Of a stretch of DNA of 64,000 bases, positions 39,277 to 43,837 are shown in pieces. Source of the stretch: an uncultured Chloroflexia bacterium (GTDB lineage Bacteria > Chloroflexota > Anaerolineae > CG2-30-64-16); contig CAWEMM010000009.1 in assembly GCA_963810095.1 (NCBI GenBank), positions 448,001-512,000 on the forward strand. Reading direction: 5' to 3'. A program made the position numbers and the translations under genes. The notes beneath the pieces were generated by a model. That model did not search any database. It was given only the letters and a program-made list of their open reading frames with translations, and was not told where the DNA came from. Within the stretch, counting starts at the first letter, position 1, and each line of letters begins with the position of its first letter.

Positions 39277-39306
39277 TTGACATCGCTTGCGTTTAGCTCG
39301 TATAGT
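39277..39306 (+). promoter_or_regulatory. Sigma70-type promoter of the Rrf2 gene
   Basis: TTGACA-18 nt-TATAGT. Confidence 0.75.
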
Positions 39307-39315
39307 ACCCTCAGT

Positions 39316-39338
39316 TCTCCTACTACTTCACTAGGCTA
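39316..39338. promoter_or_regulatory. Candidate Rrf2 operator, copy 1
   Basis: TCTCCTA-CTACTTCAC-TAGGCTA just downstream of the -10 box. Confidence 0.6.
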
Positions 39339-39346
39339 TATGTGAG

Positions 39347-39781
39347 ATGAAGCTATCGAAGCGCGGCGAGTACGGTTTGCGTGCAATGGTCGACTTGGCC
39401 TCCCAGCCAGTCGGCGCCGTCGTGTCCACTAAGGACATTGCCCAGCGCGAGCAAATACCGGCCAAATTCCTGGAGCAGATCCTGCTCGCGCTGCGCAACG
39501 CCGGCCTGCTGCACAGCCGAATGGGCCTGGGCGGCGGCTACGCGCTGGCGAAGCCGGCCGCCGATATCACGTTGGGGCAGATCGTGCGTGTTTTGGACGG
39601 ACCTTTGGCGCCCATTCGCTGCGTGAGCCAGATGGCCTACGAGCCATGCGCCTGCCCGGACGAGAAGACCTGCGGGCTGCGGCTCGTAATGTCGGACGTC
39701 CGCAACGCGATTTCGTCCATCCTGGATCGAACGACCCTGGCCGATGTGGCGCACCGCGTGGAGGCGGCGCGTCTCCTGTAG
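39347..39781 (+). CDS. Rrf2 family transcriptional regulator with Cys cluster
   Basis: GEYGLRAM, FLEQIL, GGGYALAKP, DGPLAPIRC...CACPDEKTC. Confidence 0.95.
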   Translation: MKLSKRGEYGLRAMVDLASQPVGAVVSTKDIAQREQIPAKFLEQILLALRNAGLLHSRMGLGGGYALAKPAADITLGQIVRVLDGPLAPIRCVSQMAYEPCACPDEKTCGLRLVMSDVRNAISSILDRTTLADVAHRVEAARLL

Positions 39782-40017
39782 GCGATCCCTTACGACAGAC
39801 CGAACTGGTCGCAAAATCGTAAGGACGCGCTGTGTACGTAAGGGCGAGCTGAAGCTGGCCCTAGGCTCGACCCCATTTTGCGATTGACCTGGCAGAGCGC
39901 AGGGTCACAAAGCGAGCTCGGTTCAAATTGCTGTCTGCATCACGCTTGCCCCGAAGACACCGGTAGCTGGGCTGCCGGCCGTCGGTCTCGATCGGCAAGC
40001 GTCATTTTGCCATCAAT

Positions 40018-40040
40018 ACTCCTACTAACTCCCTAGGAGT
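40018..40040. promoter_or_regulatory. Candidate Rrf2 operator, copy 2
   Basis: Perfect inverted repeat ACTCCTA-N9-TAGGAGT just before the RBS of the pstS-like gene. Confidence 0.65.
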
Positions 40041-40064
40041 CATAGAAGAAGGAGGAACTCCGCT

Positions 40065-41059: not shown

Positions 41060-41097
41060 CGCTCAGCCAGGTCCCCCGCAGAGACCTGGCTGAGCGG
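41060..41097. terminator. Stem-loop after the pstS-like gene (probable mRNA stabiliser)
   Basis: cgctcagccaggtc ... gacctggctgagcg. Confidence 0.65.
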
Positions 41098-41118
41098 GCC
41101 AGCGATTAGGAGCTCACG

Positions 41119-42099
41119 GTGGAATCAACGCTTCCCCGAGCTGGGGGCGAGCCAGCGGCGCGTTCAAATGCGAGCCGCTGGCGCTACCTTAAGGACCGCA
41201 TCGCCTCGCGCATTCTTTGGCTGGTCGCCATTTTGCCGCTCGTCATCCTGGTGCTCATGGCCGCGGGGCTGGCTGCACGGACGAAACCGCTCTTGGATCA
41301 TGCCTCGTTGGGGGCGCTGCTGCTGGGCGAGACGTGGAGCCCTCAGCAGGGTCTCTTCGGCTTCCTGCCCTTCATCGTTGGCACGGTCTGGGTGACGACG
41401 GTCGCCATGATCATCGCCGTGCCGCCCACCCTGCTCATGGCGATCTACCTTGCCGAGTATGCCCGGCCCAGCACACGCACCGCCATGAAGCCAATCCTCG
41501 ACATCCTGGCGGCCATTCCGTCCGTCGTGTACGGCGTGTGGGGCATCGTGGCGGTCGTGCCGCTGGTCCAAAACTTCTTCGGTCCTGCGCTCTCGGGCGT
41601 GTTTGGCTTCATGCCTCTCTTCCAGGTCAACAACCCGACCGGCTACGGCATTCTCGCCGGCGGCATCGTGCTGGCCGTCATGGTCGCGCCCGTGATCAGC
41701 GCCATCACGTTCGAGGTCATGGACGCCGTGCCGCGCGGGCTGCGTGAGGCGACCCTGGCGCTGGGAACGACCCGTTGGCAGACGATCAAGCACGTCGTGC
41801 TGCGCAAGGCCGCGCCGGGGATCATCGCGGCGGTCGTGCTGGGGTTCTCGCGGGCGTTTGGCGAGACGATGGCGGTGCTCATGGTCGTGGGCAACGTGGC
41901 CAAAATTCCGCACTCGATCTTCGATCCCGCCTATCCCCTGACGGCGCTCATCGCGAACAACTATGGCGAGATGATGTCCGTGCCGCTGTATGATGCGGCG
42001 CTGTTGGCCGCGGCGCTGATCCTGCTGGTCGTCGTGCTGCTGTTCAACCTGGTTGCCGCGCTGATCCTGCGCCGCGTCAAGCGGAGCGTGTCGCAATGA
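41119..42099 (+). CDS. pstC: PstC-family ABC permease
   Basis: LAAIPSVVYGVWG; REATLALG; SRAFGETMAVLMV. Confidence 0.88.
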   Translation: MESTLPRAGGEPAARSNASRWRYLKDRIASRILWLVAILPLVILVLMAAGLAARTKPLLDHASLGALLLGETWSPQQGLFGFLPFIVGTVWVTTVAMIIAVPPTLLMAIYLAEYARPSTRTAMKPILDILAAIPSVVYGVWGIVAVVPLVQNFFGPALSGVFGFMPLFQVNNPTGYGILAGGIVLAVMVAPVISAITFEVMDAVPRGLREATLALGTTRWQTIKHVVLRKAAPGIIAAVVLGFSRAFGETMAVLMVVGNVAKIPHSIFDPAYPLTALIANNYGEMMSVPLYDAALLAAALILLVVVLLFNLVAALILRRVKRSVSQ

Positions 42100-42965
42100 G
42101 AAACCTGGTTTCGCGCCGGCGGATGGCATGTATCGAAGAGCGTTTCTTTCTCGGGCTGATGCTGCTCTCCTTTGTCGTGGTGGGGGGCAGCCTGCTCGTC
42201 ATCGTCGGCACGGTGCTCGTGCGCGGGCTGCCCGGGCTGACCTGGTCCATGCTGACACAGACGCCGAAGGGCGGCTTTTACATGGGCAAAGAAGGGGGAA
42301 TCCTCAACGCGATTCTGGGCTCCCTCATTCTGGCGTTTGGGGCCACGCTCGTCGCGCTTGTCCTGGCCCTGCCCATGGCCCTGTATCTCAACTCGTATGC
42401 CAGCAACAACCGGTTGAAGGCCCTCGCGCGGCTCAGTCTCGACGTTCTGTGGGGTGTGCCGTCAATCGTCTACGGCGCGGTCGCCTTCACCCTCATGTTG
42501 GTGATCGGCATGCGTGCGTCGTTGCTGGCCGGGATTGTTGCGATCGCGCTTGTCGAGCTGCCGATCCTCGTGCGTGCGGTGGACGAGGTGATGAAGCTCA
42601 TCCCGCACGAGCTGTCTGAGTCCGCACTGGCGCTTGGCGCGACCCGCACGGAGGTCGCCTTTGGCGTCATCGTGCGCCAGGCGCTGCCCGGCATCGTGAC
42701 GGGGATTTTACTGGCGTTCGGGCGGGGCATCGGCGACGCGGCCGCGGTGCTCTTCACGGCCGGCTACACGGACCGGCTGCCCACGTCGCTCTTTCGCCCG
42801 GTGGCGACGCTGCCGCTCGCGGTCTTCTTCCAATTGGGTACGCCGTTTCCTGCCGTGCAACAGCGCGGCTACGCCTCGGCGCTGGTGCTGACCGTGATCA
42901 TCCTGGTCGTGAGCCTGGGTTCACGCTGGCTGGCCGTGCGCCTGAGCCGGAATGTGATCAAGTAA
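42096..42965 (+). CDS. pstA: PstA-family ABC permease
   Basis: GGILNAILGS; GVPSIVYG; ESALALGAT; GRGIGDAA. Confidence 0.88.
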   Translation: MRNLVSRRRMACIEERFFLGLMLLSFVVVGGSLLVIVGTVLVRGLPGLTWSMLTQTPKGGFYMGKEGGILNAILGSLILAFGATLVALVLALPMALYLNSYASNNRLKALARLSLDVLWGVPSIVYGAVAFTLMLVIGMRASLLAGIVAIALVELPILVRAVDEVMKLIPHELSESALALGATRTEVAFGVIVRQALPGIVTGILLAFGRGIGDAAAVLFTAGYTDRLPTSLFRPVATLPLAVFFQLGTPFPAVQQRGYASALVLTVIILVVSLGSRWLAVRLSRNVIK

Positions 42966-42976
42966 GCCGCGGACGG

Positions 42977-43060
42977 CGCCGTAAAGAGGCGACGACACAA
43001 AGCTTCACACGGCCCGGATTCCGTGCTTTGTGAGCTTTGCGCCTTGGTGTCTTTGTGGTG
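42977..43060. repeat. CACAAAG periodic inverted repeat (degenerate)
   Basis: gacacaaagc ... gctttgtgagctttgcgccttggtgtctttgtggtg. Confidence 0.65.
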
Positions 43061-43084
43061 TCAGGTAGCCGTTAGAGGAAGCCA

Positions 43085-43837
43085 ATGGAAGCACACATTA
43101 GGGTCGAGCATCTCGGCGTGCAGTATCGCACGTTCCAGGCGCTGAAGGACGTCAACGCGGAGATCCCGCGCAACAAGATCACCGTCATCATGGGACCGTC
43201 GGGCTGCGGCAAGACGACGCTGCTCAAGAGCATGAACCGTCTGCTCGACTTGACTGAAGGCGCGCAGATCACCGGCCGGGTGTTGCTCGACGGCGAAGAC
43301 GTCTACGCACCGTCGGTGGACGTGGGCGAAGTGCGCAAGCGGGCCGGGCTGCTTGCGCAGCGGCCCTTCCCCCTGCCCATGTCGATTTACGACAACGTCG
43401 CGTACGGGCGGCGGATTCACGGCATCCGCGATGGACGTAAGGACGGTGAGGCGGTCCAACACTATCTCGAGTTGGCAGGGCTGTGGAGCGAGGTGAAGGA
43501 TCGTCTCCACACACCGGCTACCCGGCTTTCGATTGGCCAACAGCAGCGGCTGTGCCTGGCGCGCGGGCTGGCGGTCGAGCCGGAAGTAATCCTGGGCGAC
43601 GAGCCCACGTCCGCGCTGGACCCGATTTCTGCACAGCACATCGAGAGCCGGCTGCTCGAACTGAAGGAGAAATACACGGTGGTGTTGGTCACGCACGTGT
43701 TGCGCCAGGCGCGCCGGCTGGCCGACCATGTGATCTTTATGTACCTGGGGGAGCTGGTCGAGGCGGGGCCGGCGGAGGAAGTGTTCAACCGGCCGAGAGA
43801 GGAACGGACCCGGGCCTATTTGAACGGTGCGTTCTAG
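43085..43837 (+). CDS. pstB: PstB-family ABC ATP-binding protein
   Basis: [33 protein letters not shown]. Confidence 0.9.

Follow-up and report, generated by a model that had tools for sequence, protein, structure and literature searches.

A PstSCAB-derived transporter with an altered anion pocket and its own four-cysteine Rrf2 regulator in a Chloroflexia bacterium: a candidate sulfate importer

A five-gene unit with the order rrf2 - sbp' - pstC' - pstA' - pstB' was identified, from the open reading frame (ORF) list and profile scans, in a 64-kb stretch of DNA of an uncultured Chloroflexia bacterium (assembly GCA_963810095.1, contig CAWEMM010000009.1, positions 448,001 to 512,000). This whole stretch is called the window, and positions refer to it unless a genome (G) or a related locus (L) is named. 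The unit encodes an Rrf2-family regulator and a PstSCAB-like ATP-binding cassette (ABC) importer. The system is currently annotated as a phosphate transporter.

The regulator gene (39347..39781, + strand, 144 amino acids) passes the family cut-offs of PF02082 (140 bits, cut-off 30) and TIGR00738 (131.2 bits, cut-off 73.3). It is followed on the same strand by a gene for a variant PstS-like substrate-binding protein of the lipoprotein type (40065..41045, 326 amino acids, PBP_like_2, PF12849 121 bits), a PstC-like permease (41119..42099, TIGR02138 278.9 bits, cut-off 196.45), a PstA-like permease (42096..42965, TIGR00974 205.6 bits, cut-off 193.45) and a PstB-like ATPase (43085..43837, TIGR00972 325.9 bits, slightly under the cut-off of 343.2). 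One of the two canonical PstB proteins of the same genome also lies under this cut-off, at 340.2 bits. A ribosome-binding site (RBS), AAGGAGG, was read directly from the sequence at 40049..40055 (+), ahead of the ATG at 40065.

The only strong promoter in 39150-44000 is a sigma70-like TTGACA-18-TATAGT (11/12 matches) at 39277..39306 (+), upstream of rrf2. Operator 1 (39316..39338) starts 8-13 nt past its -10 hexamer and lies over the expected transcription start, with the core CCTA-N9-TAGG (CCTACTACTTCACTAGG) at 39319-39335. Operator 2 (40018..40040), a perfect ACTCCTA-N9-TAGGAGT, lies 9 nt ahead of the RBS of the binding-protein gene. A sequence-only reading of this DNA had reported one and the same palindrome past the Rrf2 -10 box and before the pstS-like RBS, and both sites were confirmed.

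The pattern CCTA-N9-TAGG occurs 2 times in the window against 0.09 expected, a number reached in 0 of 100 shuffles. The two copies are a genuine feature, well beyond what chance would give. The 6.13-Mb assembly as a whole contains 4 matches to this pattern, 2 of these at the locus, and 17 to the relaxed pattern [CT]CTA-N9-TAG[AG]. As a motif for the family the strict pattern was rejected, with 3 matches in 80 related loci, 2 of them relevant; the conserved part is CTA-N9-TAG with AAAGT/ACTTT flanks. Iterating a position weight matrix (PWM) over the related loci gave a 25-bp palindrome, AAAGTCTATTAAATTAATAGACTTT, with the core CTA-N9-TAG. The family consensus is AAAGTCTAyTA-N3-TArTAGACTTT, and the form found in the window's genome is TCCTACTA-N-CTAGGA.

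Scored with this matrix, 45 of 48 regions upstream of rrf2 and 37 of 50 Rrf2-linked regions ahead of the binding-protein gene carry an above-threshold operator, as do just about 6 of the 29 loci without Rrf2. Of the 45 rrf2-upstream regions with an operator, 40 also have a promoter of the form TTGACN-16..19-TANNNT that ends 2-14 nt ahead of it, and the window shares this promoter-then-operator layout with the orthologous loci. The site therefore sits over the transcription start, the classic position of a repressor. Operator 1 has rank 4 genome-wide under the cross-species PWM, which is AT-rich and in a 65% GC genome mostly picks AT-rich stretches. The exact pattern CTA-N9-TAGACTTT was found 7 times in five carrier genomes, all at the locus; the reversed control pattern gave 0-5 matches per genome.

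The regulator remains under the equivalog cut-offs of CymR (103.1 bits against 195), IscR (78.5 against 207.55), RirA (58 against 193) and NsrR (54.3 against 182). Among solved structures it comes closest to 4CIC (92.7 bits) and CymR (about 77 bits). Four cysteines, Cys92, Cys101, Cys103 and Cys109, are kept in 49, 47, 48 and 48 of 50 Rrf2 orthologues, respectively; the exceptions are L051 and L054 (one cysteine missing), L074 (truncated) and L067 (none). In the 4CIC chain, which we take to be the C92/101/107S cluster-ligand mutant, serines occupy the positions aligned to Cys92 and Cys101, and this makes it plausible that the four-cysteine site carries an iron-sulfur (Fe-S) cluster. The gene is found directly upstream of the importer genes, on the same strand, in 49-50 of the 80 variant loci, with 46-84% identity of the product. 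We consider a regulatory module made up of Rrf2 and the two predicted operators highly probable, and well supported by the comparative evidence.

A different form of the regulator is seen in Smithella (L067 5485-5883), where an Rrf2 gene stands ahead of a pst'-cysD-cysNC operon. All four cysteines are absent from this CymR-like, cluster-free version, and no family operator was detectable at L067.

The binding protein falls below both PstS cut-offs (TIGR02136, 127.1 against 206.6 bits; TIGR00975, 63.8 against 205 bits). TIGR02136 scores are bimodal in 40 carrier genomes, with variants at 95-135 bits and canonical proteins at 203-313 bits. Furthermore, a quick maximum-likelihood tree places all 81 variants together (Shimodaira-Hasegawa-like approximate likelihood ratio test, SH-aLRT, 99), and a branch of 5.46 changes per column separates them from the canonical proteins. 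Relatives of the binding protein, 7,926 of 8,000 scored candidates at E <=1e-10, come mostly from Chloroflexota metagenome bins, the best 120 at 61-100% identity. They are named 'phosphate transport system substrate-binding protein' by the Joint Genome Institute (JGI), and often 'substrate-binding domain-containing protein' by NCBI.

The positions that hold the ligand were compared in an alignment of the 81 variants, 21 canonical PstS proteins of the same genomes and E. coli PstS, in which we take T10, F11, S38, S139, T141, R135 and D137, as listed in the structure literature, to be the ligand residues. At T10 the variants have F (54) or W (27) and the canonical proteins D (16), S (3) or T (2). 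At F11 all 81 variants have A and all 21 canonical proteins T. S38 corresponds to A in 81 variants and to S (17) or T (4) in canonical proteins, S139 to C (50), A (27) or S (4) and to S (21), and T141 to A (80) or S (1) and to T (21). The charged positions have R in 81 variants, and R (18) or P (3) in canonical proteins, at R135; at D137 they have D in 81 variants, and T (13), S (4), V (3) or A (1) in canonical proteins. Additionally, Lys80 is present in 80 of 81 variants, where 17 of 21 canonical proteins have Thr. The motifs SGAFA (residues 46-50), GGAGKG (76-81) and SAGAA (175-179), pointed out in the sequence-only reading as unlike those of PstS, are all present.

A non-hydroxyl residue is thus found in 81 (T10), 81 (S38), 80 (T141) and 77 (S139) of the 81 variants. 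With these replacements the pocket has lost hydroxyls that both donate and accept hydrogen bonds, and, as judged from the aligned residues, it keeps or gains backbone and cationic donors. PstS recognises protonated phosphate via acceptor groups, whereas the sulfate-binding protein uses donors only. The variant pocket would therefore be the one expected for a fully ionised oxyanion, e.g. sulfate, and the physiological ligand of the binding protein is likely to be other than phosphate.

Despite these changes the PstS fold is kept: all of the 41 best Foldseek entries listed are phosphate-binding proteins of the type II periplasmic-binding-protein fold, with TM scores of 0.48-0.73. The AlphaFold2 (AF2) model used has a mean predicted local distance difference test score (pLDDT) of 77. 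In the permeases, which were aligned to E. coli K-12 PstC and PstA, the GET motif of PstA has become GDA in 10 of 10 aligned variants. The permease path still looks like that of an oxyanion transporter and would not discriminate between phosphate and sulfate.

Within an insert of about 17 residues, the variants also carry an EF-hand-like D-x-N-x-D-G...E loop (residues ~242-253, DVNGDGTASAEE). The canonical PstS of the window's genome lacks this loop, a possible Ca2+ site.

At least 561 relatives were confirmed in species-representative genomes, and the analysis used the 80 best loci. By record titles these belong to Chloroflexota, Smithella/Syntrophaceae/Syntrophorhabdus, 'delta proteobacterium', the anaerobic methanotrophic archaea (ANME) ANME-1 and ANME-2, Methanoperedens, KSB1, Bacteroidota and Armatimonadota, and the carriers are mostly from anoxic habitats. 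About 7 kb on each side of canonical pstS in 20 of the same genomes was used as a matched control. Neighbours were counted by tblastn with one query set (E <=1e-8, at least 40% query coverage). Rrf2 was found at 49 of 80 variant loci and 0 of 20 canonical loci, and PhoU at 0 of 80 and 13 of 20, respectively. CysD, CysN(C) or Sat-CysC was found at 12 of 80 variant loci against 0 of 20. For any sulfur-related query, that is with CysK, CysE, TauE, sulfotransferase, MetW and Sbp-like proteins added, the numbers are 26 of 80 and 0 of 20.

The two nearest ORFs on each side were also scanned for families, with a downstream ORF available at 67 loci and an upstream one at 71. The gene cysD starts 12-15 nt past pstB' in L048 (ANME-1), L053, L067, L069 and L089, and is followed by cysN or cysNC. 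In L020, L023, L027, L029 and L031 sat-cysC or cysC lies 47-240 nt downstream, and TauE/SafE lies 37-55 nt downstream in L018 and L068. Other neighbours are a sulfotransferase (downstream, L038), cysE-cysK (L032), a Cys/Met pyridoxal phosphate enzyme (downstream, L014) and MetW (directly upstream, L033, L056 and L083). Two Thermodesulfobacteriota-type loci have, immediately ahead of the gene for the variant binding protein, a molybdopterin oxidoreductase of the sulfite oxidase family (PF00174; L066 4857-5609, L071 1531-2286). A recurrent ORF of about 450 amino acids past pstB' turned out to be NfeD, with LipA next to it; the arrangement reflects synteny and was given no evidence value.

Eight loci without Rrf2 (L030, L035, L036, L045, L047, L050, L058 and L079) share an alternative context, and 7 of the 8 binding proteins cluster in the tree. 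Upstream is a MshEN-domain protein, often preceded by an OmpR-type regulator, and downstream is an Sbp-like SBP_bac_11 protein (100-118 bits on TIGR00971, cut-off 155.5) together with a weak Na/Pi-cotransporter-like ORF (PF02690, 34-39 bits). This context is ambiguous between sulfur and phosphorus.

The window's genome also has a canonical phosphate system. Its locus lies beyond the window, some 60 kb upstream on this contig, and encodes a PhoR/PnpS-like kinase, PhoU (185 bits, cut-off 130), PstS (286 bits), PstC, PstA and two PstB proteins. Canonical PstS is likewise retained in 32 of the 40 carriers. Sbp/CysP proteins above cut-off were found in 0 of 40 carrier genomes and not in the window's genome, the assembly of which is 88.5% complete; four carriers have matches below cut-off, and those checked adjoin the variant locus.

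APS (adenosine 5'-phosphosulfate) kinase above cut-off is present in 35 of 40 carriers; in an even sample of the window's phylum, which includes the unpublished genome G038, the number is 66 of 121. This contrast is weak support for a link to sulfate activation, because of the relatedness among carriers and the different lineages making up the two sets. A cross-tabulation of presence and absence within the phylum sample was unusable, since just 2 of the 121 genomes carry the variant.

The window's genome itself has a TauE homologue, 54.5% identical to the TauE of L018, directly upstream of a sat-cysC fusion. This pair, a TauE/SafE-like permease and the fusion gene (G000 C6:1630746-1633327, L094), is flanked by a UDP-glucose dehydrogenase and a sugar nucleotidyltransferase. 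Two sulfotransferase-domain genes lie on C11, and CysD was not found in this 88.5% complete assembly.

Other genes related to phosphate uptake or its control were noted in the same genome. An orphan PstS-like protein (L008 7407-8333 (-), the same as G000 C7:349451-350200) scores 136.8 bits, below cut-off, and has SWW where both PstS types have SR; its gene adjoins that for UppP, NusA and Tgt are encoded close by, and its flanks showed no transporter genes. A third PstS-like gene at G000 C12:16593-17365 is split over three frames and is likely a pseudogene. PhoU paralogues were found at C12:12517-13155, near the split gene, and at C6:1746349-1746993.

Taken together, we propose that the unit encodes a Pst-derived importer of sulfate or another sulfur oxyanion under a dedicated four-cysteine Rrf2 repressor, a reading to which we give a probability of roughly 0.55. 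Sulfate import is favoured because the residues gripping phosphate have been lost, because the system has its own cysteine-rich repressor, and because it forms operons with sulfate-activating enzymes elsewhere. In the proposed mechanism an Rrf2 dimer would bind the 25-bp palindrome. One copy overlaps the start of rrf2's own transcription and the second lies just before the RBS of the transporter genes, so that Rrf2 would repress both itself and the importer. A signal altering the conserved four-cysteine site, probably an Fe-S cluster and possibly thiol chemistry, would release repression. The importer would descend from PstSCAB and have kept oxyanion-type permeases and the ATPase, while the phosphate-binding hydroxyls were swapped for Ala, Gly, Cys and Phe/Trp and a Lys was gained. 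The resulting donor-only, acceptor-poor pocket would suit a fully ionised tetrahedral oxyanion, with sulfate as the most likely substrate (thiosulfate being possible), to be passed to ATP sulfurylase and APS kinase.

Part of this had been anticipated in the sequence-only reading. The importer is Pst-derived with a non-canonical binding protein, as it held, in view of the low TIGR02136 score, the separate clade and the lost ligand hydroxyls. Its remark that no phoU is adjacent agrees with the absence of a PhoU homologue from the window by tblastn and with the counts at related loci. The separate canonical pstSCAB-phoU that it had suggested looking for exists, and the neighbourhoods of homologues, another of its suggestions, include operons with sulfate-activation genes in other lineages. 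The Rrf2 gene and palindromic operator are conserved with the importer across phyla. Its inference of a Pst-derived importer under an Rrf2 regulator of sulfur status stood as regards the Pst descent and the Rrf2 linkage, and failed as regards a sulfur regulon.

Several observations weigh against the sulfate reading, and many of them are what would be seen if the system were still a phosphate importer, i.e. a second Pst with a site re-tooled for another affinity, pH or ionic form, in which an Fe-S or redox-sensing Rrf2 replaces PhoBR-PhoU. PstC' and PstA' exceed the phosphate-family cut-offs and PstB' nearly does. The equivalents of E. coli PstC R237 and E241 and PstA R220, which we take (in that numbering) to be the charged pathway residues, are kept in 10 of 10 aligned variants, and the binding protein retains the R135/D137 equivalents. 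All top structural matches are PstS, and the AF2 model is weak (pLDDT 36-44) at residues 171-200, which include the third motif, so that the pocket geometry is unreadable. The sulfate-activation genes occur at just 12 of the 80 loci, most Chloroflexota loci have the uninformative neighbours NfeD, LipA and CoaBC, and the counts are not independent, as the carrier genomes are related. The alternative context of the eight Rrf2-less loci, with its Na/Pi-cotransporter-like ORF, points partly the same way, as do further loci without Rrf2, where OmpR-type regulators and histidine kinases have PhoB and PhoR among their best matches, which are below cut-off, and the phosphodiesterase-family gene and metallophosphoesterases neighbouring the system in L066, L067 and L077. 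In the window's genome no further convincing operator was found beyond the locus and none at cys or sulfur genes, where the sequence-only reading would have had them (there is no CTA-N9-TAG near sat-cysC); the 7 matches in five related genomes are confined to the locus as well. For this reason Rrf2 is, on the evidence of its predicted sites, a dedicated local regulator and not a global sulfur regulator like CymR. The same genome has at least four SulP proteins above cut-off, and therefore other possible sulfate routes, and neither PAPS (3'-phosphoadenosine 5'-phosphosulfate) reductase nor sulfite reductase was found in the 88.5% complete assembly. As sulfotransferase-domain genes are present and these reductases were not found, imported sulfate may serve sulfation here and not cysteine synthesis, with the TauE-linked sat-cysC fusion probably supplying PAPS for that purpose. 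We nevertheless regard continued phosphate import as unlikely, given the replacement of four ligand-hydroxyl equivalents in nearly all variants, the absence of PhoU from the variant loci compared with the canonical loci of the same genomes, the coexistence of canonical PstS in most carriers, and the operonic cysD-cysNC, for which phosphate offers no rationale.

Import of some other oxyanion (thiosulfate only, sulfite, selenate, molybdate/tungstate, arsenate, phosphite or thiophosphate) would account for the changed pocket too, as sequence alone does not reveal which anion is bound. Selenate and molybdate are further substrates of ATP sulfurylase; SBP_bac_11 proteins, of the family covering Sbp and ModA, adjoin the system in 6 loci; the molybdenum enzymes of L066 and L071 lie immediately upstream; and the carriers' mostly anoxic habitats would fit as well. 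Against this, the operon partner that recurs is the sulfate-activation machinery, and the 265 flanking ORFs scanned include no ModE, molybdenum-cofactor, ars or ptx genes, so that we judge this possibility, too, to be improbable. It is far less credible still that the palindromes arose by chance or act as RNA hairpins, with the Rrf2 gene a mere neighbour. Operator 2 in the window's genome does hold Shine-Dalgarno-like and anti-Shine-Dalgarno-like strings (ACTCCT / AGGAGT). However, its RNA folds no better than shuffles (z -0.27), on which an RNA-hairpin or anti-Shine-Dalgarno role was rejected, and no Rfam family matches in 38000-45000. The number of copies in the window, the adjacency of Rrf2 to the variant and not to control loci, and the conservation of the motif at both positions across dozens of loci in a sequence unrelated to Shine-Dalgarno (AGTCTA...TAGACT) all speak against this possibility.

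With PstSCAB the proposed sulfate system has in common the gene order S-C-A-B, the binding-protein fold and permeases above the family cut-offs. It differs in the binding protein, which has Lys80, a 2-residue insert (YPSPPAR) and the EF-hand-like loop, in the GDA of PstA, and in having Rrf2 in place of PhoU or a Pho regulator. CysPTWA/Sbp (SulT) resembles it in proposed substrate and role, as a two-permease ABC importer linked to cys genes. The variant binding protein, in contrast, does not match TIGR00971, and its permeases score best as PstC and PstA, with only 24-51 bits on the CysT/CysW models (cut-offs 246-329). The regulator shares the winged-helix Rrf2 fold family with IscR, the Thermincola potens IscR-like protein (PDB 4CIC) and CymR, and also the autoregulation via a spaced palindrome, which here is predicted. 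It is distinguished by a C-X8-C-X-C-X5-C motif with four cysteines, and its regulon, unlike the global ones of IscR and CymR, appears limited to one transporter operon. A precedent for the recruitment of a phosphate-transporter family to sulfate is CysP of Bacillus subtilis, described in the accessible sections of PMC5840216 as a PiT-family sulfate permease with cys-operon context and loss of phosphate-specific residues. CysP is, however, a secondary PiT carrier and not an ABC transporter, without a binding protein or Rrf2 regulator.

No paper on an Rrf2-Pst pairing or on a Pst-type sulfate importer was found in a full-text search, with subscription-only papers outside its scope. The accessible sections of PMC5840216 name CysP/PiT and DASS sulfate transporters and do not contain the terms 'pst', 'PstS' or 'Rrf2'. 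Those of PMC6286981 call the sulfate transporters of ANME archaea 'putative', with uncertain specificity, and do not contain 'ABC', 'phosphate' or 'pst'.

More generally, we suggest, though with slightly less than even confidence, that the variants are a so far unrecognised family of prokaryotic sulfate importers that arose from Pst by rebuilding of the pocket. The family would have spread horizontally among Chloroflexota, Thermodesulfobacteriota, Bacteroidota, KSB1, Armatimonadota and ANME/Methanoperedens archaea, and in many lineages a four-cysteine (Fe-S) Rrf2 would tie the uptake of sulfate to the Fe-S, sulfur or redox state of the cell. Should sulfate be the substrate, a Pst-derived ABC type would join the known sulfate-uptake families. 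It would also provide PAPS synthesis with the uptake step that is missing in Anaerolineae, Syntrophia and ANME archaea, and thousands of entries named 'phosphate ABC transporter substrate-binding protein' would be misannotated. Since the JGI names are phosphate names, anoxic metagenomes may give too high a pstS count where this gene is used to gauge phosphorus limitation. The pair of variant and canonical protein is a clean natural experiment on a specificity switch of an anion-binding pocket, and the locus offers a compact, single-target Rrf2-operator module.

The unit is flanked by a MntR/FeoA/Nramp ORF, a LytR_cpsA_psr gene, a 939-aa ORF and a GH43 gene. The 939-aa ORF (43906-46725, - strand) runs towards the pstB-like gene, matches no Pfam family at E <=1e-5, and adjoins the GH43 gene at 46836-48758. 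Between the two convergent genes lies a strong GC-rich hairpin (43847..43893, -56.4 kcal/mol, z -6.17), and 0 of 200 shuffles were equally stable. It is likely the 3' end of the operon; as it has no U tract, it was not flagged by the terminator scan. On the other side, a 788-aa ORF (36879-39245, + strand) joins a MntR/DtxR-like repressor region (residues 60-275, Fe_dep_repr_C and two FeoA stretches) to a full Nramp/MntH transporter (residues 381-787). Such a repressor-transporter fusion would be unusual; the start codon would be TTG, and two separate genes are possible.

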